Origin: an uncultured Gammaproteobacteria bacterium
GTDB taxonomy: Bacteria; Pseudomonadota; Gammaproteobacteria; Xanthomonadales; Xanthomonadaceae
NCBI GenBank assembly: GCA_963714135.1
Contig: OY970231.1
Span: 3,111,219 to 3,175,218, forward strand
DNA: 64,000 nucleotides
Direction: 5' to 3'
Both the position numbers and the translations under genes were made by a program. How positions within the stretch are numbered: the stretch's first letter is position 1; each line of letters opens with the position of its first letter. Positions 1 through 39,481 of the stretch are shown here, one piece after another. The notes under the pieces are model-generated. The model worked only from the letters and a program-made list of their open reading frames with translations. It searched no databases and had not been told where the DNA came from.

Positions 1-3000
1 AGAATCCAGATCGTGGTGTTGGCGATCGGTGTGCCGATCGAAATAGCCAATTCGGGATGGTGCACACGCCAGACACTGGACCACACGCAAGTTTCGGTGG
101 GGCCGTAGAGATTCCAGACTTCCTTGCTGCGCATCTGCAGCGCCAAGGCCAAATCCTGCGCCAACGGCTCGCCACCGCAGAGCACCTTGAAGTGGCTGCC
201 GCCCATCCAGCCCGCTTCGACCAGCAAGTGCCAGGTCGCGGGTGTTGCCTGCATCAGTGTCGCGCCGCTGTCGCTGAGCAATTGCGCCAGCGCATGGCCG
301 TCGCTGGCGGTTTCACGATCGGCCAACACCACCTCGGCGCCCACGCTCAGCGGCAGCAGCAGTTCCAGCACGGCGATATCGAACGACAAGGTCGTCACCG
401 CCACGAGCTTGTCGCTGGCCTCGATGCCGGGTTGTCGCTGCATTGCGGTGATGAAATTGGCCACGGCCCGATGCGGCACCTGCACGCCCTTGGGTTTGCC
501 GGTCGAACCGGAGGTGTAGATCACATAGGCTACCGATTCGGGTTCGGCGGATTGTTCGTCGCGGCCGATCCTCGCCTCGGACAAGGATTCGATCTGCGCC
601 GACAATATATCCAGCGCCAACACCGGCAAGCCTGGTGTCTCGAAACTTGCAGCATGCGCCGATTGCGTCACCAGCGCGGCAAGGCCGGCGTCGCCGACCA
701 TGAACGCCAAACGCTCCTTCGGGAACGCAGGGTCCAGCGGCACATAGCCAGCGCCGGTCTTGAGGATGCCCAGCAAGGTCGCCAGCATGTCGATGCCGCG
801 ATCGAGCGCCAGTCCGACCAGCGCGCCCTTGCCGATGCCGCGAATGCGCAGCCAGTGGGCGATGCGGTTGGCGCGCGCTTCCAATTGGAAATAGGTCATC
901 GAATGGTTGCCGGCACGCACGGCGATTTGGTTCGGCGTGCGATCGCATTGCCGCTCGAAGTGCTCATGCATCAGGCATTGCCGGTCGAACGGCAGCGGCG
1001 CCGGTTGCAGCGCGGAAATCTCGGCGCGCTCGTTGGCCGCCATGACCTCCAATGCGGCCACCGGCGTGTGCGGATCGGCAGCGACCGATTGCAAAATCGC
1101 CAGATACCGCTGGCGAAGCCGGGAGGCGGTATCGGCCTCGAAGATCTCGCTGTTGTAGATCAACCCGCCCGACAGTCCCTTGTTGTGCGCGAGAAACCAC
1201 AAGCCGATGTCGTCGCTGGCGCCACGCTGGAACAGCATGATGGTCTCGTGCTGCAAATTGCCCCAGCGCGATAGCCGCTGGCGCACGTCCTGGAACGAGA
1301 ACACCGCCTGGTAGATCGGCGAGCGGCTGTAGTCGCGCGGCACTTTCAATTCGTGGACCAGGCGTTCGAACGGTACATCGGGATACGCGAAGGCATCCAT
1401 CACCGCTTCGCGCACGGTCTTGACCAGTTCGACGAACGGCAGGTCGGGATCGATGCGCAAGCGCAGCGGCAGCATGTTGACGAAAAATCCCATGAGCGCT
1501 TCGAGTTCACTCGAATCGCGATTGCGGAACGGAAGGCCGATCACGATCTCACGTTGTCCGCTCATGCGATGCAACAACACGCAATAGGCGGCCAGCAAGG
1601 TCATGAACAAGGTCGCATCGACGTTGCGGCCCACCTCGCCCACCGCATCGCTCAGGTTTTTCTCGACCCGTATCCATTCGGTGCTGCCCATTGCGCCAGT
1701 ACGCGCGGGGCGCGAATGATCCAGCGGCAGATCCAGCGGTTCCAGTTGACCGGCGAGACGTTGTTTCCAGTGTTCGACCTGTGTGCTCAATTCTTCGCCC
1801 TGCACCCAATCCAGATGCCAGGCGGCGAAATCACCATAGTCCACGGCCAGTTCCGGCAACGGCGATGGCTGACGCTCGTGGAAGGCCCCGTACAGCAGAC
1901 CCATCTCCTTGTAGAACAGATCGAACGACCAGCCATCCCAGATGATGTGATGCGGCATGAAGAACATCACATGCTGCTGTTCGGACAAGCGGAACAAACG
2001 GACCCGGAACAACGGACCTTCAGTGAGATTGAATGGCTGGTTGGTCAATTGTTCGAGCCGGCTGGCCAAAACCCGCTCGCGTTCCTGCGCGTCCAGCGCC
2101 GATAGATCCTCGGCCGGGAACAAGGACACCGGCACGTTGTCGAGCACTCGCTGCATCGGTGTTTCGTCATCGACCTCGATGATCGTACGCAGCGTCGCCT
2201 GGCGCCGGACGACTTCACGAAACGCTTGCTCGAAAGCATGTTCGTCCAATTCGCCAGTCAACCGGTGCCCGGACGGCGTGTTGTACACGACCCGGTCGGG
2301 CGAGAGTTGTTCCAAATACCATAGGCGTTGCTGCATCAGCGACAAGGGCGCGCGCTGGCGGTCGGTGCGTGCGCTGACCGGCTTGCGCGATGGTGTTGCC
2401 GCCGTGGATCGCAGGCCGGCAACGGCCTGTGCCAGGCGCGCAACGGTCGGCGCATCGAACAAGGTACGCAGCGACAGCGACACGCCCAGTTCACGATTGA
2501 GCCGCGCGCTCAGTTGCGCGGCCAGCAGCGAATGTCCGCCGAGCGCGAAGAAATCGTCGTCGATGCCGATCTCCGGCAAGCCCAACACCTGCGCCATGGC
2601 CGGGGCGATGGCGCGTTCGAGATCGTTGCGCGGCTCGCCGCCACGGGGCTGGCGCTTGCCATCGGACACCGGTACCGGCAACGCCTTGCGGTCGATCTTG
2701 CCGTTGGGCAGCAGCGGTATCGCATCGAGCGCGACGATGTGCTGCACGATCATGTAATCGGGCAGCGTGTTCCTGAGATGCGCCAGCAGCGCCGCTTCAT
2801 CGACGGCCATGCCGGGCTTGGCCACGACATAGCCGACCAGCCGCACATCGCCCGGGCGATCCTCGCGTGCGATCGCCACGGCACGGGCGACCGACGGATG
2901 GCTGGACAGGGTGTTCTCGATCTCGCCCAGCTCGATGCGGTAACCGCGCACCTTGACCTGGAAATCGAGCCGGCCCAGATGTTCCAGGTTGCCGTCGGCA

Positions 3001-5668
3001 CGCCAGCGGCCGCGATCGCCGGTACGATACAACTTCGGTTCCGGCGATGGTCCAGGCAATTGTCCAGGCGACTGACCGGTTTGGCCGGAAGATCTTTCAC
3101 TGAAGCGATCGGCGATAAAACGCTCGGCGGTCAGTTCCGGCCGCTGCAAATAACCCAGCGCGACGCCCTCGCCGCCGATGCAGATCTCGCCCGGCACGCC
3201 GAGCGGGCACAATTCACCGTTGCCATCGACGATCCACACCCGGGTGTTGGCGATCGGCCAGCCGATGTGGATATCGGGCACATGCTGCGGCGGTGGCGTG
3301 TCTATTCGCGCACAAGTCGACCACACCGTCGTTTCGGTCGGGCCATACAAATTCCAGAGCGACGCACAGCGCGGCAACAAGCGCGCGGCCAAATCCGGCG
3401 CCAATGCCTCGCCGCCGCACAATGCCTTGAACCGCGCATCGCCTGTCCATCCGGCATCGAGCAGCAAACGCCAAGTCGAAGGCGTGGCCTGCATCGCCGT
3501 GGCTTGCGTGCTCGACAGCAAGGCCGCCAATGCATTGCCATCGCCGGCGGTGTCGCGGTCGGCGAGCACCACCTGCGCGCCGACAGTCAATGGCAACAGC
3601 AATTCCAGCACGGCGATGTCGAATGACAAGGTGGTCACTGCGACCAGACGATCGTCCGCGCTCAGGCCCGGTTCCCGGCGCATGCTCTGCAGGAAATTGG
3701 CAACGGCGCGATGCGGCACCTGCACGCCTTTCGGCCGACCGGTCGAGCCCGAGGTGTAGATCACATACGCGGCCGATTCCGGCATCGCGGCATCCGCATC
3801 ACGCTCGATACGTTCGCTGGATGCGACGTCGAGTTCGCTGTCGAGTTCATCGAGCAGCAACACCGGCCGCCCGCGCAAATCGAAATGCGCCGCATGCTTG
3901 CGCTGGGTAATCAGCGCGGCAAGTCCGGCATCGCCGGCCATGTAGCTCAGGCGCTCGGCCGGGAATTGCGGGTCGAGCGGCACATACCCCGCTCCGCTCT
4001 TGAGTACGCCGAGCAAGGCCGCCGGCAGGTCGATGCCGCGATCGAGCGCCAGCCCGACCAGTGCGCCGCGATGTATACCGCGTGCGCGCAGCAGATGGGC
4101 GATGCGATTGGCGCGCGATTCGAGACCGGCGTAGCTCAATGCGAGCGAAACGCAACGCAACGCGATCCGGTCCGGCGTGCGATCGCACTGCCGCTCGAAA
4201 TGCTCGTGCATCCGGCATTGGCGATCGAAGGCGACCGGCGCCGGTTGCAGCGCGGCCAACTCCGCCTGCGCCGCGGCATCGACCCAAGGCAAACGGGCAA
4301 AGGCGGCATCGGGTTGTTCGATGGCCGAGCGCAGCAAAGTTTCGTAAGCAGCCAGCCAGCGGCTCACCGTGGCGGCATCGAACAGATCGCTATTGAACTG
4401 GCATTCCAGCCGCAACTCGCCATGCGCCTGCACGGCGTTGATGAACAACTCGAAGTTCTCGAAGCGGCGCGGGTTGCTGGAAAACTCCAGGGTCAGGCCG
4501 GGGAATCCGGTGCTCTCCAGATCGAGCGCCTGATCGATGTTGAACATCACGTTCACCAGCGGCATCCGGCTCGGGTCGCGCGCAACGCGCAACTTCTTGA
4601 GCAAGGTACCGAAGGTGTAGCGCTGGTGTTCGAGCGCATCGAGCAAGGTCGCCTGCATGTCATCGAGCGCCTGCGCGAACGGCTGAGCCGCATCGATCGC
4701 GCAACGCAGCGGCAGCAGGTTGACGCAATGCCCGACCAGATGATCGTGCCCATCGACCGATTGCCCGGCGGCCGGAATACCGATCACCGTCTCGGCTTGC
4801 CCGGTCAATCGCGACAGCAGCCCGGCGAATCCGGCGAGCAAGGTCGCAAACAGGCTGGCCCCGCGCCGCCCGCCCATGCGCCGGATGGCATTGAGCAAGG
4901 TCGCGTCGAAGATGTGATCGACGCGTTCGGACACAAAGCTGCGTTGCGCCGGCCGTGGCCGGTCGGTCGGCAAATCGAGCACCGGCGCGCCATCGGCAAA
5001 GCGCGACAGCCAATACGCTTCATCGGCGGCGAAGCCCGCACCGTCCGGATGCAGGGCAAGATCGAGCGCGTAATCGGCGAATGCCTCCGCATCCGGCAGC
5101 GCTTGCACTGCGACAGCCTCGCGATTTTGCGCATACAACTGGCCCAGTTCATGCACGATCAGCCACCACGACCAGCCATCGCAAACGATGTGGTGCGCGG
5201 TCAGCATCAACAGATGTTCGTCGCTGGACAAGCGCAGCAGCGCGGCGCGAAACAGAGGGTCGTGTTCGAGCACGAAAGGCGTTTGTACCGCGCTTTGCAA
5301 ATGCGCGTGCAAGGCGGCATCGCGCTCAGTGGCCGGCAATGCCGCCAGGTCGGTCAAGGGCAAGGCGATCTCGCCATGCTCGCGCACGCAGAAGGTTTCG
5401 CCATCGGGGCCGAAACTCGCACGCAAGGCATCGTGTCTTTCCAGCAATGTGCGCAGCGCATCATGCAATGCTTGCGGGTCGAGCTGGCCGCGCAGCCGCA
5501 GCGACACCGATTCGTTGAACGCCAGCGAAGCGTCGCGGCCGAGCTTGTCGGCCAACCAAACTTCGCGCTGCGACTCGGTAGTCGGCACCACGCGCGCCAA
5601 CACGCCGCCCGCGAACGGGTCGTAGTCGATCGCGGTTTGCGTCATGGCGGGAGTGTTGGAGGCGAGGT

Positions 5669-5672
<4 letters not shown>
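1..5672 (-). CDS. Non-ribosomal peptide synthetase, 3'-truncated by the window edge (C-A-PCP-C-A...)
   Basis: Absent from the ORF track because it runs off the window. The minus-strand frame starting at ATG 5672 (ATGA overlap with the upstream stop at 5669-5671) stays open to nt 1, and no minus-strand track ORF uses this frame. My translation gives MNLASNTPAMTQTAIDYDPF...TESQREVWLADKLG. Motifs in order: C domain AHHIVCDGWS; A domain AYVIYTSGSTGRPKGV (about 3715-3760), YRTGDRGRW, NGKIDRKAL; PCP DDFFALGGHSLLA (about 2520-2560); second C MPHHIIWDGWS (about 1930); second A AYVIYTSGSTGKPKGV (about 485-530). The long plus-strand track ORFs here are antisense shadows. Confidence 0.9.
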
Positions 5673-13114
<7,442 letters not shown>

Positions 13115-13160
13115 GGAGTGGGCAACCCCTGGTCAATGACGCATGTGCGCCGCCGCGACC

Positions 13161-14165
13161 TCATGACGGTTCGACCAACGCAAACGCCCCGCACGGGGAC
13201 GCTGCGGGCTTGCCCATGGCATGGCGCACGATCTCGCGCACCCGTTTGCTGCCGATGACGCTGGCATGCAACAGGGAATCGAACAGCGGCGACCGGCCGA
13301 TCGGAGGCGGTGGGAAACCCGCCAACCGCATCAACTCGTGTGTCTTGTGCAACAGCGCATCGCGCCGGGTCGCATCGGTGAAATAGGTAAAGCTCATGGT
13401 GATCGATGGCGCGTCGCCGTTCTCGACCATGTGCGGACTGGTCGATGGTAGGTACGCGCCCTGCCCGGGTTCCAGATCGAACACATGCGCGCGTTCGCGA
13501 AACGCCTCGTTCCAATGCAACAAGTCGCGCTGGTGGCAATGATGAAACCGGTCGCGCGCCTGTTCGCTGGCGACGACGTTGTCGTCCGGGTCCCACACAT
13601 ACACGCGCTTGTTGCCGCGAATCTGCAGGATGAAGTTGTGTTCCTTGTCGAAATGAAACGGCGTTACCGTGCGCGGCGAGGAGACGAAGATCCAGCCGCC
13701 GCGATAGCACATGCCCGGGTCGCGCGACTCGATCAGCGGACGGATGCTGTCGAGCACGGTGCCCACCAGCTCGCGATACAGCGGATCGGTCTGCACATTG
13801 AGCAAGGACATCCAGGCCTTCGCTTCGCCGATCCCGGAAAGCGTCTGGGTCGCCGATCGCCGGTTCGGATGAAGCTGCGGCGCGGCGTTGAACGGCGTGC
13901 CCGCGGTCGCGTCGTTGCTATGGGTGCGGATGCGTCCCTGCACTTCCAGCCGCGCGCCCAGTTCGACCAGACTCGGCAATTGCAGCAACGGGTGATCGCA
14001 CAGCCGATGGCGAACCGCCTGGACGCACCAGGGGTGATACACCGATGCGTCCATGTCGATATACGGTTCATCGGCAAATATGCTTTCGGTACCGGCATTC
14101 GCCGCACGAGGCGCAGCTGCACCGGCCGGGTTTGCGACACCTGTCATTCTCGCTTCATCGTGCAT
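13161..14165 (-). CDS. JmjC/cupin-type Fe(II)/2-oxoglutarate-dependent oxygenase (probable hydroxylase), first gene of the NRPS operon
   Basis: 334-aa ORF. ATG 14165 is preceded by GGAGG. HxD...H facial triad candidates are TPFHFDKEH and STSPHMVENG inside a cupin-like core (WIFVSSPRTVTPFHFD). Lies 46 nt upstream of the megasynthase on the same strand. Confidence 0.7.
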   Translation of the reverse strand: MHDEARMTGVANPAGAAAPRAANAGTESIFADEPYIDMDASVYHPWCVQAVRHRLCDHPLLQLPSLVELGARLEVQGRIRTHSNDATAGTPFNAAPQLHPNRRSATQTLSGIGEAKAWMSLLNVQTDPLYRELVGTVLDSIRPLIESRDPGMCYRGGWIFVSSPRTVTPFHFDKEHNFILQIRGNKRVYVWDPDDNVVASEQARDRFHHCHQRDLLHWNEAFRERAHVFDLEPGQGAYLPSTSPHMVENGDAPSITMSFTYFTDATRRDALLHKTHELMRLAGFPPPPIGRSPLFDSLLHASVIGSKRVREIVRHAMGKPAASPCGAFALVEPS

Positions 14166-14293: not shown

Positions 14294-14995
14294 ATGGAAC
14301 CGGATTTCACCCAACTTTATTCGCAACTGAACCTTCCACCCGACTGCAGTCTGGAAGAGTTCAAGCGCGCCTATCGACGCCGAATCTCCGAACTGCATCC
14401 AGATCGGCGGGGCTCGATGCCTGCACCTTCGCTGGAAACCCAAAACGTACTGCGCGAACTGATCTCACTCTATGCCGCCGCCATCCGCTTCAACCGACGG
14501 CACGGGCGTCTGCCGGGGGGAACGATGCATGCCGCGACGCCGCCGCGCCCGCCTGTCCCGCTCCGGCAATTTCCCGCCGCCCGATCGCCTCGCCCGGTTG
14601 CCCGGCATGGCCCGGCCATTTCAATCCTGTTGATTGCACTGCTGCTGACATTGCTGCTTTCCTGGTACTGGTCGGTCTCGACGGTGCCGGAAGAAGAAAC
14701 CGCCCTCGTTTCCGAATACACCGGCCCGGTCACCACCGTGGCGATAATCCGTAGCCAGCTCGAAGTGGGAATGGACAAGGACACGGTTCTTGCCATCCAG
14801 GGCGAGCCCGTGCACAAGAACGACACCGAATGGGATTACGGGCCTTCCTGGCTGCGCTTCGAGCAAGGGCGCCTGATCGATTGGTACAGCTCGCCGCTTT
14901 ACCGGCTCAAGACCACCACTCCATCGGCGCAACCGAAAGCCGCCACCAGCCTGCTGCAAAACCCGTCTCAACCAGTCACGCCTTCGAAAAAATGA
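14294..14995 (+). CDS. J-domain (DnaJ-like) membrane protein with a C-terminal BamE/SmpA-OmlA-like domain
   Basis: N-terminal J domain with HPD (FKRAYRRRISELHPDRRG). Pro/Arg-rich linker. One TM helix (ISILLIALLLTLLLSWYW). C-terminal LEVGMDKDTVLAIQGEPV...WDYGPSWLRFEQGRLIDWY resembles the BamE fold signature. Confidence 0.75.
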   Translation: MEPDFTQLYSQLNLPPDCSLEEFKRAYRRRISELHPDRRGSMPAPSLETQNVLRELISLYAAAIRFNRRHGRLPGGTMHAATPPRPPVPLRQFPAARSPRPVARHGPAISILLIALLLTLLLSWYWSVSTVPEEETALVSEYTGPVTTVAIIRSQLEVGMDKDTVLAIQGEPVHKNDTEWDYGPSWLRFEQGRLIDWYSSPLYRLKTTTPSAQPKAATSLLQNPSQPVTPSKK

Positions 14996-15171: not shown

Positions 15172-16566
15172 TCAACGCGCACCACGCCCGAACAACACCA
15201 CTTCCACCGTCTGGACCATGATCATTAGATCCAGGATCAAGCCGTGGTTCTTGACGTAGAACAAATCGAACTTCAATTTTTCCTCGGCATCGCGCACCGA
15301 CGCGCCGTACGGATAGCGCAGTTGCGCCCAGCCGGTCAGGCCGGGTTTGACGCTGTGGCGGATGTCGTAATAGCGGATCTCCTGGCTGAGCATGTCCACG
15401 AACTGCGGACGCTCGGGGCGCGGCCCGACGAAGCTCATATGCCCGCGCAACACATTGAACAATTGCGGCAGCTCGTCCAGCCGCGTCTTCCGGATGAAGC
15501 GGCCGACCCGTGTACTGCGGTCGTCGTCGGCATTGGCCCAGCGTGCGACGCCATCCTTCTCGGCATCCACGCGCATGCTGCGGAACTTCACCAGCTCGAA
15601 ACTCTTGCCACCCTGCCCCACGCGCGTCTGCCGGTAAAGAATCGGCGAGCCCGATTCCAGCCACACGCAGAGCGCCACCACCAGCATCACCGGCCAGGCC
15701 ACCAGCAACAGGGCCGAGGCCGCGACCAGATCGAAGAACCGCTTGCTCAGGCGGCGCGGAATGGAGTGATCGAAACCGCCGGAAAACACCAGCCAGGACG
15801 GATCCACCACATCGACCTTGATCAGGCCCGCTTCGCGCTCGAAAAAACTCGACAGGCAAGTCATCGTCACGCCGCGTTGCACGCAGGCCAGCATGTCCTC
15901 CATCGGCAACCCGCCACGGCGCTCGTCGGGAGCGGCGACGATTTCATACACCTGCAGCCGCGACACCAATTCGAGCAAGCCGTGCTCGGGATACACCAGC
16001 AATTCCTCCGGCACCAGCACCGGCTGATCCGGCAAGGGAACGAAGCCGACCAATTGGAACGACTGGCGATCGGCACGCCGCCGCAAGCGGCTGTTGATGA
16101 GGCTGGCATTGGTGCCGGCGCCCAGCACCAACACCCGCCGCTTGAACGCATCGGTGCTGAACACCTGCTGGAAGATCAGGCGCAAGACCACGATGCCGAA
16201 CAACCCCAGCGCCAGCGCCAGCGTCAGTACACCACGGCCGATGTAGGTCTGCGGCACCAGGTAATAGAGCACCAGCAGGCCGATGCCACCGAAGGCGAAC
16301 GACAGCAGTAAGCGCAGAAAGAAATCGAGCCGGCTCAGGCGCATCTGCACCTGGTACAAGCCAAACGATGCCATGGCCAGGGTGATGAACAAGCCCACCA
16401 GTAGCGAGCGCATTGGCGCGGTCTCGACGAAGATCGAGTGGCCGACCGGATCGTTCATGAAACGTGCCCAGGCCGCTGTCATCACGGCCAGCACCATCAA
16501 TAAAAGCTCCAGCGACCATAGCAACAAGGTCGCACGGCTTTTCCGGCTCGCTATCGAGATAGGCAT
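15172..16566 (-). CDS. Polyprenyl-phosphate glycosyl-1-phosphate transferase (bacterial sugar transferase family, WbaP/EpsB-like)
   Basis: C-terminal phosphoglycosyl-transferase motifs: KFRSM, LDELPQLFNVLRGHMSFVGPRPERP, KPGLTGWAQ. Several N-terminal TM helices. Internal ATG 16566 is preceded by AGGAGAA and is preferred over the track start at 16614. Confidence 0.88.
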   Translation of the reverse strand: MPISIASRKSRATLLLWSLELLLMVLAVMTAAWARFMNDPVGHSIFVETAPMRSLLVGLFITLAMASFGLYQVQMRLSRLDFFLRLLLSFAFGGIGLLVLYYLVPQTYIGRGVLTLALALGLFGIVVLRLIFQQVFSTDAFKRRVLVLGAGTNASLINSRLRRRADRQSFQLVGFVPLPDQPVLVPEELLVYPEHGLLELVSRLQVYEIVAAPDERRGGLPMEDMLACVQRGVTMTCLSSFFEREAGLIKVDVVDPSWLVFSGGFDHSIPRRLSKRFFDLVAASALLLVAWPVMLVVALCVWLESGSPILYRQTRVGQGGKSFELVKFRSMRVDAEKDGVARWANADDDRSTRVGRFIRKTRLDELPQLFNVLRGHMSFVGPRPERPQFVDMLSQEIRYYDIRHSVKPGLTGWAQLRYPYGASVRDAEEKLKFDLFYVKNHGLILDLMIMVQTVEVVLFGRGAR

Positions 16567-16909
16567 GACGCATTCTCCTGTGGCGGGTTCCGGTCCCTGT
16601 TCGATGAGTGCCAAAGCACAAACCGAGCCAAGGACCGCGCGGCGCCAAGAAAGAATTCAAGCGCACCCCGCCCGCTGGCGCCGGCGAAGGGTGATCCGAC
16701 ATTCGACCTGTCCACGTAACCTGTATTGCCAATACTGGAAATCAACGTAAGTCCCTCGTGGTTCGCCTGGCCTAGGGCCATCTGGCAGGAATCCTTGCCT
16801 GGCATCGTTCAGTTCGCAGCTTAAAGTGTTAACTGTGTCACAAAATGACAATTTGCGCCGCCTAACCCTCCGGAATTCTCCGGTCGTCGGCAAGAGGGGA
16901 AAAACCGGC

Positions 16910-18041: not shown

Positions 18042-18902
18042 ATGGACATGGGTCGAACCAGTGACTTGAAAGACAAACTGCGCCGTATCGCCAACGAGAC
18101 CGCCGAGCTGCCGGGAGTGAGCCTGCTCGCCAAGCCCCTGTACCGGCGCCTGTTCCAGCAGCCGTACCGCCACGGCAATCTTTACTGCGGCGTTTATCAA
18201 AGCTACGAGCAAGCCAAAGAGCATGCCCCCAGAAGCTTGCCGACGACCTATGACACGGACGCGGCCACCCGGATGTATCGCGATCAGATCGAGCGCCTGC
18301 GAGTCAGCGATTATCCGCTGCTGTATTGGGTCGCCCGCCTGCTCCAGACAGGCGAGCGCCGCGTGTTCGATCTGGGCGGGCACATCGGTATCAGCTACTA
18401 CGGTTTTGCCCGCTACATCGACTATCCGGCCGATCTACGCTGGCGGATCCATGACGTGCCGGCCGTGGTGGCCGCCGGGCGCGACTGGGCCGCAAAACAC
18501 GACCGGCAGCGCCATCTCGAATTCACCGGCACACGCGAGGATGCCGATGGCCAGCAGGTATTGATCGCCACCGGCGTGCTGCAATATCTCGAATACACCC
18601 TGCCCGAATTGCTGCAACAGTTGAAAAATCCACCGCAGCACGTGCTGGTCAACCTGACACCAATGCACCCCAGCCAAGGTTATTTCACCTTGCAGAATAT
18701 CGGTTTCGCCATCTGCCCTTATCGAGTCATGGCGGTGCCGGAGTTCATCGCCGGCATGCAGGCGCTGGGTTACGCGGTGATCGATCGTTGGGAATCGCTC
18801 GAACGCAATCTGCGCGTGCCGTTCGAGCCGGCCTGCACGATCGATCGTTACTCCGGGTTCTACTTCCGGCGTGATTCGGTGAAATTACCCGGCGCAAGCT
18901 GA
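18042..18902 (+). CDS. Putative SAM-dependent methyltransferase (resembles TIGR04325-type enzymes of polysaccharide loci)
   Basis: Internal ATG 18042 is preceded by GAGGA. VFDLGGHIGISYYGF is glycine-rich and SAM-loop-like. LIATGVLQYLEYTLPELL is also present. The family assignment is from memory. Confidence 0.7.
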   Translation: MDMGRTSDLKDKLRRIANETAELPGVSLLAKPLYRRLFQQPYRHGNLYCGVYQSYEQAKEHAPRSLPTTYDTDAATRMYRDQIERLRVSDYPLLYWVARLLQTGERRVFDLGGHIGISYYGFARYIDYPADLRWRIHDVPAVVAAGRDWAAKHDRQRHLEFTGTREDADGQQVLIATGVLQYLEYTLPELLQQLKNPPQHVLVNLTPMHPSQGYFTLQNIGFAICPYRVMAVPEFIAGMQALGYAVIDRWESLERNLRVPFEPACTIDRYSGFYFRRDSVKLPGAS

Positions 18903-18944: not shown

Positions 18945-19154
18945 TCAGGAGTGAGCCCGATGACCGAGCACGGTCGCGGGCAGGAACAGCACGGCCTTGA
19001 TCAGGGCAAACAGCGCATCGAAGGTGATGCCGACCAGCCGGAACGGCAGCGACAACAGCCATACCAGCGGTGCAAGCACCAGCGCCAGCAAGGCCAGCGG
19101 CCAACACAACACCCACAGAACGCACCAGCAGACGAACAAGATAAGGGTTTTCAT
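18945..19154 (-). CDS. Small hydrophobic membrane protein (69 aa), function unknown
   Basis: Tail of track ORF 18945..19691 starting MKTLILFVCWCVLWVLCWPLALLALVLAPLVWLL. ATG 19154 is preceded by GGGAG. Two predicted TM helices. Lies 95 nt downstream of the RES toxin gene on the same strand. Confidence 0.4.
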   Translation of the reverse strand: MKTLILFVCWCVLWVLCWPLALLALVLAPLVWLLSLPFRLVGITFDALFALIKAVLFLPATVLGHRAHS

Positions 19155-19249
19155 TGCCAAACTCCCGCCAATCCAGAGCGGCAATGATTCAACAATCATC
19201 ACACGGACAGCGCAAGCGCCAAACGTCATGCCGCGACAGCGGGCATCGC

Positions 19250-19696
19250 TCAGCGGATGAAGCGCTTGTCGAACCAGAACGGGTTGATGCTGATTTCCCG
19301 AAGCACAGTGACGGCGGATGGATGAGCGGCGTTGATCAGGAAATTGCTGCTGTCGGCGATGAGCGCCGACGGAATGGCCATCGCCACTTCGGCCTGGCTG
19401 TCGAGCCAATGATTGCCGATGGTCTGGGTCGCGGGCTCGTTGGCCTGCCAGCCATTGGGCAGTTTCGGGGCCTTGGCGACGGCCGCGCCGGGATCGATTT
19501 CGATCTCGATGAGCTTGAGCGTCAACGGAATGGTCGTCAGAGTGATGCGCAGATTGGCCAATGTTTCGATCATGGCCAGCGCCGGATGTTCGGCGGCGTA
19601 GATGACCGGGCGCGGCTTGGTGTGCCAGCGGCCATCGGTATAGAGTCCACCCGTGCCCTGCAGGCCGGGATAGGAGGAAATGCGCCAGCACCGCAT
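19250..19696 (-). CDS. RES-domain toxin (ParT/MbcT-like NAD+-targeting toxin family)
   Basis: Motifs: WRISS...GLYTDGRWH (Arg), YAAEHPALAMIE (Glu), AIPSALI (Ser). The track start at 19699 is a TTG. The ATG at 19696 overlaps the antitoxin stop as TGATG. Confidence 0.85.
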   Translation of the reverse strand: MRCWRISSYPGLQGTGGLYTDGRWHTKPRPVIYAAEHPALAMIETLANLRITLTTIPLTLKLIEIEIDPGAAVAKAPKLPNGWQANEPATQTIGNHWLDSQAEVAMAIPSALIADSSNFLINAAHPSAVTVLREISINPFWFDKRFIR

Positions 19697-20160
19697 CAAT
19701 AAATGCCGTGCGCGGTCCGCAGAAGGCTTTGCTCGATCAACCGGGCGCCCGGCTCGGTGGCGGCAAGCATGATGGGTTTGATGGGGGGACTATCGGCCAG
19801 CCATTGGGCCGGGGTCATCAGCCAGCGTTTGGCGGTTTCCTCGTCGCCGAACAGATCGACGGCCTGGGCGTAAACGCGAATGACCCGCATGAGACGTTCG
19901 GATTCGGCGGCGGTGAATTTGGCTTCTTCCTGGACCCGCCGGCGGATGGTGGTTTCCGCGCCGATCAAGGGTACGACTACACTGCGATCGACTCCGTGCT
20001 TGAGAAACCGGTCGAGCGAGCTGGTGGGCAATCCTTGCAGTACCAGCCTGAGAATGTCTTCTTCCGAACGCAGTGGAAGGTGCAGCCCGAGCAGCTTTTT
20101 AATTCGCTCGAACAAGTTCGGCGCCGGGGGAATCTGGGGGACTATGGCTAAAGCGGTCAT
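19696..20160 (-). CDS. Xre-like antitoxin with DUF2384 domain (ParS/MbcA-like)
   Basis: Internal ATG 20160 is preceded by GGAGG. The C-terminal sequence AESERLMRVIRVYAQAVDLFGDEETAKRWLMTPAQWL...PIMLAATEPGARLIEQSLLRTAHGIY is typical of DUF2384 antitoxins that sit upstream of RES toxins. Confidence 0.82.
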   Translation of the reverse strand: MTALAIVPQIPPAPNLFERIKKLLGLHLPLRSEEDILRLVLQGLPTSSLDRFLKHGVDRSVVVPLIGAETTIRRRVQEEAKFTAAESERLMRVIRVYAQAVDLFGDEETAKRWLMTPAQWLADSPPIKPIMLAATEPGARLIEQSLLRTAHGIY

Positions 20161-20438
20161 GCTAACTCCTCCATTTGGAGCAAACACTACGCCATTTGGC
20201 AGAATTTGCAACCCGCCGCCGGCCGGGTATTCAGGCAGAGCCCAGTCTCGAAGCGTCTCACCCCTGCTCCATCGCCGCCAGGCGGTTGCCACATGGAACG
20301 GCCGGCAAAGGATTTTCCGTTCTACATACCGTACCTGCCAATCACGTCCGTCAAACATCGCCCTGCCGGACCCATCGACTCGCCATCGATCAGGACTTCC
20401 ATCCGATTTCCCGCCGCCGCCTGGCGATTGGAGACGAA

Positions 20439-21557
20439 ATGAAAACCGCCTCACTCAAACACCGCGTCGCGCAGTTGCTCACCCTGGCCGATGTCCGGAT
20501 CGATGGCGGACGGCCCTGGGATATCCGGGTGCGCAACGATGATTTTTATGCACGCGTGCTGGCCCACGGCTCGCTGGGGCTGGGCGAATCGTACATGGAC
20601 GACTGGTGGGAAACCGGCGCGCTCGATACTTTCTTGTCCCGCCTGTTGAACGCAAGACTCGATCAACGCGTGCGCACCATCGACGATTGGCTCACCGGCC
20701 TTCGCGCCAAACTGCGCAATCTGCAAAACCGGCGGCATGCTTTCGAGATCGGCCAGCACCATTACGACCTGGGCCATGACCTCTACCAAGCGATGCTGGG
20801 CAAGCGCATGGTCTATAGCTGCGGTTATTGGCGCGATGCCGGGGATCTGGATTCGGCGCAGGAGGCCAAGCTCGATCTGGTTTGCCGAAAGTTGATGCTC
20901 CGGCCCGGCATGCGCGTACTCGATATCGGCTGCGGCTGGGGCGAGGCGCTCAAGTTCGCGGCCGAACGCTATGGTGTCAGCGGCGTCGGTATCACCGTCT
21001 CCAACGAACAGGCCCAGAGCGCGCGGCAGTTGTGCCACGGTCTGCCCATCGAGATCCGGCTGCAGGACTATCGCGACGTCAAAGAGCAATACGACCGTAT
21101 TTTCTCGCTGGGCATGTTCGAGCATGTCGGCGTGAAGAACTACCGCCGCTATTTCGAAACCGCGCGTCGCTGTCTCACCGACGCGGGTCTGTTCCTGTTG
21201 CACAGCATCGGCACGAACGTGTCGGTCAACAGCACCGACCCGTGGATCGCCAAGTACATCTTTCCCAATTCCATGCTGCCCTCGGCCGCGCAGATCACCC
21301 ATGCCATGGAAGGCTTGTTCGTGCTCGAGGACTGGCACAATTTCGGCGTCGACTACGAACGCACGCTATTGGCTTGGCGCGAGAACATCGAGCGCGCCTG
21401 GCCGGCACTCGCCCCTCGTTACAACGAGCGCTTCCAGCGCATGTGGCGCTACTACCTGGCCGCGAGCATCGCCGCATTCCGCGTCCGCGATACCCAGTTG
21501 TGGCAGTTGGTGCTCTCGCCGCATGGCGTTGCGGGCGGTTATCGCGCACCGCGTTAG
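20439..21557 (+). CDS. cfa: Cyclopropane-fatty-acyl-phospholipid synthase
   Basis: 372 aa from ATG 20439, with GGAG upstream. HYDLGHDLYQAMLGKRMVYSCGYW and VLDIGCGWGEALKFAAERYG (SAM motif) are present, as is the FEHVG..NY..YF signature of the Cfa/mycolic-acid synthase family. Confidence 0.92.
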   Translation: MKTASLKHRVAQLLTLADVRIDGGRPWDIRVRNDDFYARVLAHGSLGLGESYMDDWWETGALDTFLSRLLNARLDQRVRTIDDWLTGLRAKLRNLQNRRHAFEIGQHHYDLGHDLYQAMLGKRMVYSCGYWRDAGDLDSAQEAKLDLVCRKLMLRPGMRVLDIGCGWGEALKFAAERYGVSGVGITVSNEQAQSARQLCHGLPIEIRLQDYRDVKEQYDRIFSLGMFEHVGVKNYRRYFETARRCLTDAGLFLLHSIGTNVSVNSTDPWIAKYIFPNSMLPSAAQITHAMEGLFVLEDWHNFGVDYERTLLAWRENIERAWPALAPRYNERFQRMWRYYLAASIAAFRVRDTQLWQLVLSPHGVAGGYRAPR

Positions 21558-21669: not shown

Positions 21670-22278
21670 TCAGCCTCGGCGAACCAGACCGCAATACAAA
21701 CCTTCGATTCCGAAATCGGCGTCCGGCGCGACTTCGATGGGCGCGTAATCGGGATTGCGCGGCAACAACAGCAAGCGATCCCTGGTGCGCTTGAGCCGCT
21801 TGACCGTGATCTCGCCATCGATGCGCGCCACGACGATCTGGCCGTTCTCGGCCACCTCGGTGCGATGCACGGCGATCAAATCACCATCGAGGATGCCGTC
21901 ATCACGCATCGAATCGCCCTTCACCCGCAGCAGGTAATCGGGCCGCGGAAAAAACGCCGCATGATCGAACAGCATCTGCCCCTCGAAATCGGCCTGCGCA
22001 CTGATCGGCGCACCTGCAGCCACACGGCCCAGAATCGGCAGCGTCAGCGTATCCGAGCGGTGCGACCTGCCCGCCGCCAGCCGGATGCCGCGCGCCTTGC
22101 CCGGCAACAAAGCGATGACACCCTTGGAATCGAGCATGCGCAAATGCTTGTGCGCGGCATTGTCGTGAATGCCGAACGCCTTCGCGGTCTCCGCCACCGA
22201 CGGCGCCACACCTTCGGAGCGGATGTGCTCGGCGATGAAATCGTAAACAGCTTGCTGGCGGTCGGTGAGTTCAGTCAT
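21670..22278 (-). CDS. lexA: LexA repressor (SOS regulator, S24 peptidase)
   Basis: MTELTDRQQAVYDFI wHTH N-terminus. AG cleavage site (RVAAGAP). Ser/Lys dyad context (VKGDSMRDDGI and VKRL). Start taken at ATG 22278 by analogy to the canonical LexA N-terminus. ATG 22299 is also open. Confidence 0.92.
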   Translation of the reverse strand: MTELTDRQQAVYDFIAEHIRSEGVAPSVAETAKAFGIHDNAAHKHLRMLDSKGVIALLPGKARGIRLAAGRSHRSDTLTLPILGRVAAGAPISAQADFEGQMLFDHAAFFPRPDYLLRVKGDSMRDDGILDGDLIAVHRTEVAENGQIVVARIDGEITVKRLKRTRDRLLLLPRNPDYAPIEVAPDADFGIEGLYCGLVRRG

Positions 22279-22279
22279 G

Positions 22280-22297
22280 GGTGGATATTTATACACC
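22280..22297. promoter_or_regulatory. Imperfect 18-bp palindrome abutting the lexA start (candidate autoregulatory operator)
   Basis: The minus strand reads GGTGTATAAATATCCACC, with 14/18 self-complementary positions. It sits directly 5' of ATG 22278. Only partial resemblance to CTGT-N8-ACAG. Confidence 0.3.
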
Positions 22298-22639
22298 ATC
22301 CGGAGCGAAAGTCATCCCCTGCGCAAAGAGGCTGAGTCATTGGAGTGTTCGAGAGTTTCGCAGGTCTAACGCGGGGTCGTTGGCTGAAGGAAACCGAGGT
22401 TTTGCCTTGGCCGCTGGCTGTCATTGTTTTCCGCCAAAATATTTCACACGACTTATGTGTTTGCCCGCAGACGGGAACAAACGTTCGCAAATCGCAGCAC
22501 CGATCTGCCCCTCCGTATTTTCAGTGCTTCGGCGACATCGTTGGACATCATGTTGACCAATGCAACTCTGTCGTGCCAAATCGAAACTGCCGATTCGCCT
22601 GAATTTGGTGCTGCAACTCAGACTATACGGAGAGTCATC

Positions 22640-24803: not shown

Positions 24804-27218
24804 ATGAGCGTGCCGCAATTGCGTGGGGATCGGGCGGATCTTGCGTTTGGTCTTGTTCCTGCGAAAAACAGTGAGGCTTTGGCTGAGCGGCTTTCGGCGA
24901 AATATGCCGAGCGCGTGACTGGCCGCTTTTTGATTCCCGGGCGGGCTGGGCGTTATGCGCCTTTGCCCGAGGCTTTGCCGCCGGCATTGATCGAAGCTTT
25001 GCGCGCTCGCGGTATCGATCGGCTCTATAGCCATCAGGCCGAGGCTTGGGCGGCGACGCAGCGTGGCGAGCATACGGTCGTGGTCACGCCCACTGCGTCG
25101 GGCAAGACGCTGTGCTACACCTTGCCGGTGGTCGCGGCGGCGATGGGCCAGCGGGCCAAGGCGCTGTATTTGTTTCCGACCAAGGCGCTGGCGCAAGACC
25201 AAGTGGCCGAGCTGTTGGAATTGAACAAGGCCGGCGATCTCGGTGTGCGCGCTTTCACCTTCGATGGAGACACGCCCGGCGATGCGCGGCAGGCGATTCG
25301 TTTGCACGGCGATGTGGTGGTGAGCAATCCGGACATGCTGCACCAGGGCATCTTGCCGCATCACACCAAGTGGGCGCAGTTCTTCGAGAACCTGCATTAC
25401 GTGGTGATCGATGAGATCCACACCTATCGCGGCGTGTTCGGTTCGCAAGTTGCCAATGTGCTGCGCCGGTTGCAGCGGGTGTGCGCGTTCTACGGCGCCA
25501 AACCGCAATTCATCCTGTGCTCGGCGACGATCGGCAACCCCAAGGCGCATGCTGAGGCCTTGATCGAAGCGCCGGTCACCGCCATCACCGAGAGCGGCGC
25601 GCCCAGCGGTGAGAAACACGTGCTGCTGTGGAATCCGCCGGTGATCAATCCCGATCTGGGCTTGCGTGCATCGGCGCGTTCGCAATCCAACCGCATCGCG
25701 CGGCTGGCGATCAAAGCCGGTTTGAAGACACTGGTGTTCGCACAATCGCGCACGATGGTGGAAGTGCTGACCAAATACCTCAAGGATGTGTTCGACCACG
25801 ACCCGCGAAAACCCGCACGCATCCGCGCCTATCGCGGCGGTTATTTGCCCACCGAACGCCGCGCCGCCGAGCGCGACATGCGCGCCGGCCGCATCGACGG
25901 CATCGTCAGCACCTCGGCGCTGGAACTGGGCGTGGATATCGGCAGCCTCGACGTCGTGGTGCTCAACGGTTATCCCGGTTCCATCGCCGGCACCTGGCAG
26001 CGTCTGGGCCGCGCAGGCCGCAGGCAGCAACCGGCGCTCGGCGTGCTGGTCGCCAGCAGCGATCCGCTCGATCAATACCTGGTGCGCCATCCGGAATTCT
26101 TCGAAGGCGCGCCGCCCGAGCAAGCACGCCTGCATGCCGACCAACCCTTGATCCTGCTCGATCACATCCGTTGCGCCGCTTTCGAATTGCCATTCGTGCG
26201 CGGTGAAACTTTCGGCCCGGCCGATGCGACGCCCTATCTCGAAGTGCTGGCGGAAACCGAAGTGCTGCATCGTGAGGGCGAGCGCTGGGAATGGATTGCC
26301 GATAGCTATCCGGCCAATGCGGTGAGTTTGCGTTCGGTGGCGGACGGCAATTTTGTCGTGGTCGATCGCAGCGACGGGCGGCAGAACATCATCGCCGAGG
26401 TGGACTACAGCGGCGCCGCGCTTACGCTCTACGAGGGCGCGATCCACATGGTGCAATCACTGCCCTACCAGGTCGAGAAACTCGACTGGGAAGGCCGCAA
26501 GGCCTACGTGACGCGCACGCACGTGGACTATTACACCGACGCCATCGACTACACGCGCCTGAAGGTGCTCGAACGATTCGATGGCGCCAACACCGGACAA
26601 GGCAGCACGCATCATGGCGAGGTGCATGTCGTGCGCCGCGTCGCCGGCTACAAGAAAATCCGCTACTACACGCACGAGAACATCGGCTTCGGGCCGGTGA
26701 ACCTGCCCGATCAAGAACTGCACACCACGGCAGTGTGGTGGCAATTGCCGCAAGCAGTATTGGAGAGTGAATTTTCATCGCATCAGGACGCGCTCGATGG
26801 TTTTCTCGGCGCGGCCTACGCGCTGCATATCATCGCCACCGTGGCGGTGATGGCCGAAGCGCGTGATCTGCAAAAAGCGGTCGGCAGTGGCGACGGTGCG
26901 TGGTTCGCCGCCACTGATAGCCGCGGTCGCGGCCAGTTGCGCGGCACTGACGGCCACCCGCTCGACACCGCCCGAACCGAGCAGTTCATCCCGACGGTGT
27001 ATCTGTACGATGCCTTCCCTGGCGGCGTGGGATTGAGCGAGCCATTGTTCCGCCGTCGCGAAGAATTATTGCGGCACGCGCGTGAATTGGTTTCGCAATG
27101 CGATTGTCGCGCCGGCTGCCCGGCTTGCGTGGGGCCAGTGCTGGCCGCCGACGAAAGCATCGAAGTGCCGCCCAAGGTTTTGGCCGCGCGCGTGCTGGAA
27201 CTATTGCAATCGCCATGA
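24804..27218 (+). CDS. DEAD/DEAH-box helicase with C-terminal DUF1998 zinc-ribbon (YprA/MrfA family)
   Basis: Walker A TPTASGKT. DEIH box (VVIDEIHTYRG). SAT (CSATIGN). Helicase C motifs (TSALELGVDIG, QRLGRAGRR). C-terminal 4-Cys CDCRAGCPACV, typical of DUF1998. Confidence 0.9.
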   Translation: MSVPQLRGDRADLAFGLVPAKNSEALAERLSAKYAERVTGRFLIPGRAGRYAPLPEALPPALIEALRARGIDRLYSHQAEAWAATQRGEHTVVVTPTASGKTLCYTLPVVAAAMGQRAKALYLFPTKALAQDQVAELLELNKAGDLGVRAFTFDGDTPGDARQAIRLHGDVVVSNPDMLHQGILPHHTKWAQFFENLHYVVIDEIHTYRGVFGSQVANVLRRLQRVCAFYGAKPQFILCSATIGNPKAHAEALIEAPVTAITESGAPSGEKHVLLWNPPVINPDLGLRASARSQSNRIARLAIKAGLKTLVFAQSRTMVEVLTKYLKDVFDHDPRKPARIRAYRGGYLPTERRAAERDMRAGRIDGIVSTSALELGVDIGSLDVVVLNGYPGSIAGTWQRLGRAGRRQQPALGVLVASSDPLDQYLVRHPEFFEGAPPEQARLHADQPLILLDHIRCAAFELPFVRGETFGPADATPYLEVLAETEVLHREGERWEWIADSYPANAVSLRSVADGNFVVVDRSDGRQNIIAEVDYSGAALTLYEGAIHMVQSLPYQVEKLDWEGRKAYVTRTHVDYYTDAIDYTRLKVLERFDGANTGQGSTHHGEVHVVRRVAGYKKIRYYTHENIGFGPVNLPDQELHTTAVWWQLPQAVLESEFSSHQDALDGFLGAAYALHIIATVAVMAEARDLQKAVGSGDGAWFAATDSRGRGQLRGTDGHPLDTARTEQFIPTVYLYDAFPGGVGLSEPLFRRREELLRHARELVSQCDCRAGCPACVGPVLAADESIEVPPKVLAARVLELLQSP

Positions 27219-39186: not shown

Positions 39187-39481
39187 GTCATCAGATTTCG
39201 CCGTGCCACTGGCGGCAAACGTCCATCCCGCAACCGCGACAATGAAAAAATGCACGCTAGTGCATCGGGCCGATTTGTACTGGCGCCAGCATTCATGCAA
39301 CCAAATGACTCGCGAGCGGATCAAGACATTTCCAGACACCAATGCCCGTGTCGAACAGCCGGAGTAGCATGGCGCCGATCGTCGAGCGGTATTGATGGTT
39401 CTTGATGGTTTGTGCCGTGTTGCACACGACATCATCATTGACTTGGTACGCACAAGAGAAATTTATCGAAGCAATTTCACC

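Follow-up and report, generated by a model that had tools for sequence, protein, structure and literature searches.

What does the hybrid assembly line at the start of this 64,000-nucleotide stretch of contig OY970231.1 (hereafter the window) make, and where does its product go? The locus, carried by an uncultured bacterium of the Xanthomonadaceae, comprises three minus-strand genes that encode a cupin oxygenase, a 2481-aa hybrid of nonribosomal peptide synthetase (NRPS) and polyketide synthase (PKS), and an NRPS that is cut by the window edge. An earlier note, made from the sequence alone, had presented them as an orphan operon with an uncharacterised assembly logic. Judging from sequence comparison with related loci, we give roughly an even chance to the reading that the operon is a functional small-molecule module of a glycoconjugate locus (exopolysaccharide or O-glycan-like), the chain being placed on, or exported with, a lipid-linked sugar.

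An intact three-gene operon

The stop codon of the hybrid gene overlaps the ATG of the NRPS gene in an ATGA sequence (5669-5672), and the minus-strand frame read from 5672 down to base 3 contains no stop across 1890 codons. The NRPS gene is absent from the open reading frame (ORF) list because the listing tool omits ORFs that run off the window, which accounts for its reported invisibility in that track. The listed ORFs, the open frame, the overlap and the Pfam domains bear out both the three-gene layout that had been described and the ATGA-coupled NRPS reading C-A-PCP-C-A (C, condensation; A, adenylation; PCP, peptidyl carrier protein) up to the window edge. Measured against an ortholog of 89% identity, dN/dS was lowest in the cupin gene (0.10), with 0.13 in the NRPS gene and 0.14 in the hybrid gene. 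The three genes are therefore under purifying selection and are not chance ORFs, and a pseudogene reading of the operon is ruled out by the same values. The operon is real and intact. That it might be a decaying or silent remnant, as a truncated and degenerate C-domain piece at the N-terminus of the hybrid could suggest, is very improbable in view of the open frames, the intact catalytic motifs, the dN/dS range of 0.10-0.14 and a synteny kept across about 500 species-level contigs.

A loading module of the amino-acid type

Pfam domains, catalytic motifs and hhalign together confirmed the domain order proposed for the 2481-aa protein, namely half a C domain, A, PCP, ketosynthase (KS), acyltransferase (AT), acyl carrier protein (ACP) and aminotransferase (AMT). 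The N-terminal ~220 aa gave no Pfam match even at E<=10 and no BLAST match to the C domains of the operon itself. A profile of this region built from 105 orthologs did align with hhalign to the C-terminal lobe of these C domains (probability 97.6%, E 2.7e-12), and for this reason the description as half a C domain is correct. What remains is a degenerate remnant in which the lobe bearing HHxxxDG is missing; its conservation is poor, and the fused 4300-aa forms described below lack it altogether.

The specificity code of the following A domain, read from an alignment to GrsA, is DALWIGGTFK. For this and the other A-domain codes the MAFFT placement was corrected by hand against conserved anchors, at position 278 in the loading A domain and at positions 278 and 299 in the Gly domains of the NRPS. 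Codes of the form DALW[FLIV]GGTFK or DAFWLGGTFK, which by comparison with published codes are valine-type, were found in about 100 of 120 homologs, myxobacterial ones included. Asp235 and Lys517, the marks of an alpha-amino-acid activator, are both present, and the domain matches TIGR01733 with 464 bits for a cut-off of 317. Family score and code alike place the loading A domain among genuine amino-acid activators, with a code of the Val type. This check of the first A domain against a fatty-acyl-AMP ligase (FAAL) identity was decided by the TIGR01733 score, by Asp235/Lys517 and by the Val-type code, which rule out a FAAL or a fatty-acid primer. The carrier serine of the loading PCP lies within GGNS, and the primer is indeed handled by a genuine NRPS A-PCP pair.

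Predicted chain extension and transamination

The motifs reported earlier for this part of the protein were all found. The KS carries VNTACSTS, VETHGTAT and KSNVGH, that is a full Cys-His-His triad; the AT carries the malonyl-type signature GHSVGE and HAFH; and the essential lysine of the AMT, which binds pyridoxal phosphate (PLP), stands in YGKVVGGG. A profile of the AMT matched the AMT of mycosubtilin synthase A (PDB 6KFM, 6KFU) over its full length with 480 bits, as against 192 bits for the best glutamate-1-semialdehyde aminomutase match. By profile comparison, the AMT is a close homolog of the MycA domain that transaminates a beta-keto group. No other domain of the hybrid is as well conserved (63-87% identity across orthologs), and identity over the aligned AMT block is 77-83% within Lysobacterales and 67-69% to two Myxococcota sequences. 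The combination of a Val-type A-PCP pair with a MycA-like AMT agrees with the amino-acid-primed KS-AT-ACP-AMT line that had been proposed. As had also been noted, no ketoreductase (KR), dehydratase, enoylreductase, thioesterase (TE) or MbtH was seen in the Pfam annotation of the hybrid, the NRPS and two ortholog neighbourhoods.

The linker between ACP and AMT contains, just before the AMT, an invariant 13-residue motif, YDVKKAFGAIARI (window 7100-7165, minus strand). The YDVKKAFGAIARI motif is specific enough to fish the family out of 185,579 genomes.

Two glycine-type modules and a line that also exists as one chain

After hand correction, both A domains of the NRPS gave the code DILQLGLVW(K), in line with the Gly-type codes that had been suggested from their first four positions. 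The active motifs of the C domains are kept (HHIVCDG and HHIIWDG, both HHxxxDG). Full-length orthologous NRPSs are 2147-2164 aa long and read C-A-PCP-C-A-PCP; they end in a PP-binding domain followed by a tail of ~50 aa, and none has a terminal TE. Of 45 orthologs, about 28 have a Gly-type code in module 1, 7 have a Ser-type code (DVWHxSLVDK) there and 8 have DIMQVGGVYK; in module 2 about 30 have a Gly-type code, and the other module 2 codes look misaligned. The code of the first module thus varies between Gly, Ser and the unassigned DIMQVGGVYK among species (loci L006-L085), with the Val-type loading code and the AMT fixed. Such switching behind a fixed loader and AMT implies a family of related products.

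Labilithrix, Kofleriaceae and Lysobacter ciconiae have fused forms of ~4300 aa that begin at the A domain and read A-PCP-KS-AT-ACP-AMT-C-A-PCP-C-A-PCP. The hybrid and the NRPS work as one line, since in these forms a single chain carries both. The C-terminal tail of the hybrid (..PGARLGREPDG.PAWFVPNPEQPGKFLKVG) is kept in split orthologs and missing from the fused single-chain forms, a conservation pattern that suggests docking to the NRPS as its probable role.

A widespread family with no characterised product

More than 100 full-length orthologs of the hybrid were found, with 61-89% identity, in Lysobacter, Luteimonas, Rhodanobacter, Dyella, Frateuria, Pseudoxanthomonas, Thermomonas and Dokdonella. 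A scan with the AMT alignment, run on one genome per species, gave at least 522 contigs encoding a relative, so that the family is not rare. The best 80 of these matches are 75-87% identical and come mostly from Lysobacterales, with a few from Betaproteobacteria metagenome-assembled genomes (MAGs). Of note, L022 and L074 are MAG contigs labelled Methylobacterium and Chitinophaga pinensis, and their AMTs are 81% and 76% identical to the Lysobacterales type, which suggests binning errors or recent transfer.

No NCBIfam equivalog reached its cut-off with the cluster. Literature on AMT and Lysobacter, on exosortase and NRPS/PKS, on vicinal diamines and NRPS-PKS and on the exosortase cassette contained no product characterisation; Haft 2006 does not mention the hydrolase/ligase cassette, and epsSMASH does not mention NRPSs. 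An A-CP-KS-AT-CP-Aminotran_3 layout had already been tabulated in 2013 in Pedobacter, Salinisphaera and Thiorhodococcus, without a function (PMC3870968). In the literature covered no characterised product came up for this assembly logic, in agreement with the earlier note; the layout itself is not new. In Lysobacter niastensis DSM 18481 the same cluster (contig 5, which overlaps locus L027) had been called NRPS/T1PKS, with no MIBiG match, by a published antiSMASH analysis (PMC8407736).

The operon lies at the core of a conserved glycan locus

Gene neighbours were counted in 58 loci with full flanks, the counts for Bac_transf proteins and for the 4'-phosphopantetheinyl transferase (PPTase) being limited by flank length. 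The NRPS gene is present in 58/58 loci, and the cupin gene stands directly upstream of the hybrid in 42/58. A Bac_transf gene was found in at least 32/58 loci, a J-domain gene in the same position in at least 30/58 and a PPTase gene in at least 22/58. At least one glycan gene lies within 10 kb in 47/58. In the window, the Bac_transf protein encoded upstream of the operon matches TIGR03013 with 562 bits for a cut-off of 393 and is a full member of this family of priming transferases.

The downstream flank lies beyond the window and was read from the Logan metagenome contig that carries P0122, and from orthologous loci. P0122 is 87% identical to the hyd1like protein of locus L001 (L001:24751-25566) and is taken to be the window genome's own copy. 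On this contig follow, in order, a 266-aa protein (hyd2), a 269-aa protein (hyd1), a 905-aa GINT1_N+GT2 protein, a Polysacc_synt flippase and a DUF218 protein. The same order was found in the locus of the 89%-identical ortholog and in L. cavernae.

Two mutually exclusive downstream types can be told apart among the 58 loci: type I, with the hydrolase pair (31 loci), and type II, with a deacetylase and/or a Wzy_C protein (16 loci). In Rhodanobacter the core is flanked by genes for UDP-glucose dehydrogenase, an epimerase, a PPTase, a Bac_transf protein, the J-domain protein and two cupins, and the locus also encodes a polysaccharide deacetylase, a CapK-type ligase and a Wzy_C protein whose best match is the exosortase-A-associated O-glycosylation ligase. 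In Labilithrix (Myxococcota) the neighbours of the fused megasynthase are GT4 glycosyltransferases, an Asn synthase resembling the XrtA amidotransferase and an acyltransferase_3 protein, together with the same hydrolase pair, a cupin and two deacetylases. The operon is therefore still an orphan in that no characterised product was found, but it is the core of a conserved glycoconjugate locus and not the self-contained three-gene unit that had been described.

A secreted protein encoded upstream in 15 of the 16 type II loci is a further regular companion. It has ~250-285 aa and no Pfam match (L004:7968-8825, L005:7463-8206), and the L004 copy has no NCBIfam match either. Type II loci (Rhodanobacter, Dyella) and Labilithrix encode it along with the synthetase; of the 58 loci just one has both this protein and the hydrolase pair, a combination also seen in Labilithrix.

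The sugar genes can also be understood in another way, namely that the line makes a free diffusible small molecule (an antibiotic, a signal or a metal-binding peptide) which these genes glycosylate and export, or to which they are merely adjacent. We regard this as a real but clearly less probable option. Free metabolites are the usual output of NRPS-PKS lines, the Polysacc_synt proteins belong to the MOP exporter superfamily, and a small molecule could be a substrate of the GT2. Dependence on Wzx/Wzy genes is also found with carenaemin, a diffusible antifungal (PMC8313283), and 11/58 loci have no recognised glycan gene within 10 kb. Glycosylation of a soluble molecule, however, needs no polyprenyl-phosphate priming transferase, and here the TIGR03013 match is above cut-off. 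Moreover, genes for the deacetylase, the Wzy_C/O-glycosylation-ligase-like protein and UDP-sugar enzymes recur around the core in distant phyla, and no TE, regulator or typical resistance or transporter gene was seen.

A hydrolase pair as candidate release enzymes

As the line lacks a TE, we infer that release is performed by the two alpha/beta-hydrolase-fold proteins encoded downstream of the NRPS. The pair is directly downstream in the 31 type I loci, and in Labilithrix it lies beside the megasynthase. The best NCBIfam matches of the two small proteins of L001 are the exosortase-A-associated hydrolases 2 and 1. In hyd1like, Cys105, Asp128 and His239 are invariant among 120 homologs, in the motifs GG-x-C-S-A-A-D, DG and DCDHT, and in a confident AlphaFold model (pLDDT 86) Cys105 sits on a strand-helix nucleophile elbow. 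A Foldseek search with this model returned generic alpha/beta hydrolases (esterases, lipases) only. A Cys nucleophile would suit a thioester acyl-enzyme and transfer better than simple hydrolysis. The hyd1like family as a whole has Cys, and not Ser, at the nucleophile elbow, and most of its members are unannotated hypothetical proteins.

Proposed product and the points that weigh against it

We propose the following pathway. The A-PCP pair would load an aliphatic amino acid, Val by its code, a step that is partly shown, with the remnant C lobe inactive. From the intact motifs, KS-AT-ACP would add malonyl to the aminoacyl group to give a 4-amino-3-oxoacyl-ACP, and by homology with MycA the AMT would convert the 3-oxo into a 3-amino group. 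The NRPS would then append two residues, Gly-Gly in this genome, with Ser as the first in some relatives. The predicted product is a 3,4-diamino-5-methylhexanoyl-Gly-Gly thioester, in which the vicinal 3,4-diaminoacyl part is a plausible inference. The cupin protein matches Pfam Cupin_8 and JmjC_2 and keeps the HxD...H facial iron triad in an alignment to FIH; it would probably hydroxylate one position in the product. With lower confidence, the acceptor would be a lipid-linked sugar unit built by the TIGR03013 transferase and the GT2 protein and flipped by the Wzx-type protein, and the outcome an amine-rich peptide decoration on a surface glycan or an exported glycoconjugate. Our best reading is hence a small amine-rich acyl-dipeptide that hydrolases acting in trans would free and that would then be joined to a lipid-linked sugar unit or leave the cell with it.

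Several observations weigh against this proposal. Stachelhaus codes are only approximate predictors of substrate. Among the 58 loci, the 16 of type II have no hydrolase pair within 10 kb. Where the pair is present its members stay below the cut-offs of TIGR03100 and TIGR03101 (168 and 203), with 56 and 58 bits in L001 and 85 and 92 bits in Labilithrix, and in the three hyd2like sequences inspected there is no nucleophile Ser at the equivalent position. Neither the Pfam-annotated genes within 10 kb in five contexts nor the annotated families of the window include an exosortase or a PEP-CTERM protein. No enzyme joining the peptide to the sugar was identified in the locus, and the genes might lie side by side because they are co-regulated, or because a free metabolite is glycosylated, and not because a polymer is decorated.

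A last point of this kind concerns the starter itself. Its amine is predicted to be free, since the A domain is preceded by no more than a dead C-lobe, and in the fused forms not even by that. Formation of a five-membered lactam from a gamma-amino thioester is chemically facile, and a free gamma-amine on an ACP thioester should therefore lactamise, so that the linear diamino intermediate may need a cap; no cap or other guard against lactamisation was found in the line. The gamma-amino-beta-keto or beta-amino thioester might accordingly cyclise early to a pyrrolidinone- or tetramate-type heterocycle, or the AMT might have another role. Such an outcome seems unlikely to us, because a C-A-PCP-C-A-PCP protein follows in 58/58 loci, in Myxococcota as part of the same polypeptide, because HHxxxDG is retained in its C domains, and because the AMT is both MycA-like and the most conserved domain.

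A bolder version of the proposed acyl-dipeptide pathway, which we consider doubtful, is that a nonribosomal amine-rich peptide is grafted covalently onto the lipid-linked sugar. This would give a hybrid peptide/polysaccharide surface molecule and an elaborated counterpart of the exosortase-A cassette of ligase, ACP, decarboxylase and hydrolases. If so, the free amines of the peptide could set surface charge and, more speculatively, act as acceptor nucleophile for exosortase-type protein attachment, as the Gly5 bridge does for sortase.

If the chemistry holds, the line would be an uncharacterised assembly-line route to a vicinal diamine, in which a beta-keto thioester derived from an amino acid is the substrate of a MycA-type transaminase. 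The chemistry appears plausible, and the conserved glycan-locus setting is the more surprising and testable result. A large and strongly conserved NRPS-PKS within glycan loci, on about 500 species-level contigs from soil and water bacteria, suggests a widespread class of peptide-decorated surface glycoconjugates that genome mining has filed as "orphan antibiotic clusters". The locus also offers a handle on the role of the carrier-protein/PLP/hydrolase cassette tied to exosortase-A exopolysaccharide (EPS) systems.

Comparison with known systems

The closest counterparts are MycA and ItuA (mycosubtilin, iturin) and McyE and NdaF (microcystin, nodularin), in which, as here, KS-(AT)-ACP-AMT is followed by C-A-PCP. 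The PLP lysine is kept and the AMTs are homologous, and the absence of a KR here leaves the beta-keto group free for the AMT. In those systems, however, the primer is a fatty acyl group (FAAL-ACP) or a polyketide chain, whereas here it is an amino acid delivered by A-PCP; a vicinal 3,4-diamine is predicted in place of a beta-amino fatty acid, and the line studied here has no TE and lies in a glycan locus. By its sequence features the locus would thus work like a MycA/McyE beta-amination module, except that the fatty-acyl or polyketide primer, one of the defining features of such modules, is missing. It also departs from canonical TE-terminated NRPS/PKS clusters, as it has no cis release domain and the orthologous NRPSs end in PP-binding.

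For the proposed transamination there is a precedent in BioA, a class III PLP enzyme that uses S-adenosylmethionine as donor to form a vicinal diamine from 8-amino-7-oxononanoate, in which a ketone lies beside an amine. The chemistry is the same as that proposed for the AMT. BioA stands free of any assembly line and takes a free acid as substrate, whereas the AMT is MycA-like, not BioA-like, and would act on an ACP thioester.

The canonical exosortase-A cassette consists of an acyl-CoA ligase (TIGR03098), an ACP, a PLP decarboxylase, hydrolase 1 (TIGR03100) and hydrolase 2 (TIGR03101), and we know of no function assigned to it. The present locus resembles exosortase-A EPS loci in its full TIGR03013 member, in two unrelated alpha/beta hydrolases beside a carrier-protein-dependent, PLP-containing acyl-activating system, and in the Wzy_C and Asn-synthase neighbours of relatives, which best match XrtA-associated families. 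It differs in that a 4600-aa NRPS-PKS with a transaminase replaces ligase, ACP and decarboxylase, in that the hydrolases fall below the curated cut-offs and in that neither exosortase nor PEP-CTERM protein was seen nearby.

With DltABCD, AlmEFG (which puts Gly or diGly on Vibrio lipid A) and NodB/NodA (N-acylation of a sugar after its deacetylation) the analogy is functional only: a glycolipid or glycopolymer receives an acyl or aminoacyl group that an A domain and a carrier protein hold ready. Alm transfers Gly and Gly-Gly, and in Nod a sugar deacetylase stands beside an acyl donor system, as it does in type II and Labilithrix loci. In contrast to these systems the donor here would be a multi-module NRPS-PKS product, and no homolog of the DltB membrane-bound O-acyltransferase (MBOAT), AlmG or NodA was identified. 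For DltB and AlmG the annotated neighbourhoods of five contexts were covered, in which unannotated ORFs were not exhaustively searched.

A partial precedent for dependence on a lipid-linked sugar repeat is carenaemin (cpl) of Collimonas arenae Cal35, an AMT-containing PKS/NRPS product that needs a Wzx/Wzy sugar-repeat cluster (PMC8313283). In the scheme put forward by its authors, the peptide core is first joined to the repeat unit and then flipped (PMC8313283). Both systems are hybrid PKS/NRPS lines with KS/AT and AMT. In cpl, however, KS/AT-AMT stands at the N-terminus of CplA with a primer that is unknown, the peptide is Gln-Ser-...-D-Leu, the sugar cluster is genomically unlinked and the structure of carenaemin itself is unsolved.

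Features of the window and its upstream flank

The features of the operon and of the flanking genes assigned to the locus are listed in Table 1.

Table 1 Positions of the operon, its domains and the upstream genes in the window.
Feature	Position	Strand	Basis
Cupin_8/JmjC-type Fe(II)/2-oxoglutarate oxygenase, 334 aa	13161-14165	-	operon's first gene
Hybrid NRPS-PKS protein, 2481 aa	5669-13114	-	ORF list
Hybrid: degenerate C-domain C-terminal lobe, residues 1 to ~220	12455-13114	-	hhalign; no HHxxxDG
Hybrid: A domain, residues 227-711	10982-12436	-	Pfam AMP-binding + AMP-binding_C
Hybrid: loading-module PCP, about residues 741-806 (approximate bounds)	10697-10894	-	second PP-binding stretch; FFELGGNSLLAM motif
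Hybrid: KS, residues 858-1234	9413-10543	-	Pfam ketoacyl-synt + Ketoacyl-synt_C
Hybrid: AT, residues 1386-1662, malonyl-type	8129-8959	-	Pfam Acyl_transf_1
Hybrid: ACP, residues 1782-1847	7574-7771	-	Pfam PP-binding; LGLDSL motif
Hybrid: MycA-type AMT, about residues 1984-2434	5813-7165	-	Pfam Aminotran_3 (2039-2353)
Hybrid: C-terminal tail, ~45 aa, probable docking element for NRPS	5672-5812	-	conservation pattern
NRPS, cut by window edge	3-5672	-	1890 codons open; ATGA overlap with hybrid
NRPS: C domain 1	4233-5672	-	Pfam Condensation
NRPS: A domain 1, Gly (predicted)	2697-4199	-	Pfam AMP-binding; code DILQLGLVWK
NRPS: PCP	2421-2609	-	Pfam PP-binding
NRPS: C domain 2	1017-2357	-	Pfam Condensation
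NRPS: A domain 2, Gly (predicted), cut by window edge	3-995	-	Pfam AMP-binding; code DILQLGLVW
J-domain (DnaJ-like) protein with hydrophobic segment, divergent	14294-14995	+	Pfam DnaJ
Priming polyprenyl-phosphate sugar-phosphate transferase, TIGR03013 (XrtA/PEP-CTERM system type)	15172-16614	-	Pfam Bac_transf
Sfp-type 4'-phosphopantetheinyl transferase, listed 422 aa	16910-18178	-	Pfam ACPS + AASDHPPT_N
TIGR04325-family methyltransferase	18042-18899	+	TIGR04325 208 bits, cut-off 80

The true start of the PPTase is probably internal to the listed ORF, its homologs being 248-335 aa long; it gives HetI/AcpT-like matches below threshold and is syntenic in L001, L003 and L004. The TIGR04325 methyltransferase is 91% identical to the syntenic gene in L001 and 68% in L003, and is the probable upstream edge of the locus. 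An Rfam scan of the window gave zero matches, and a promoter/terminator scan gave background level only.

Beyond this edge, a pair of genes (18945-20454, minus strand) comprises an Xre/MbcA/ParS-type antitoxin (19696-20454) followed by a 248-aa ORF without a Pfam match; the syntenic pair in L001 is an antitoxin with a RES-domain toxin. This toxin-antitoxin pair stands between the locus edge and a CMAS-family methyltransferase gene (20175-21557), the overlapping ORF calls being on opposite strands. A LexA gene (21670-22299, minus strand) adjoins the locus, recA and recX are also adjacent to the cluster in L. cavernae, and SOS regulon genes lie beside the cluster in several relatives. The window from 22 to 64 kb holds housekeeping genes and is outside the locus. 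It includes a DEAD/Hrq1-type helicase with a C-terminal MrfA Zn-binding (MZB) domain (24804-27218, plus strand), a putative glucoamylase (39392-40792) and a phosphoketolase XFP (42396-44756, plus strand) close to a transketolase (46025-48115, minus strand).

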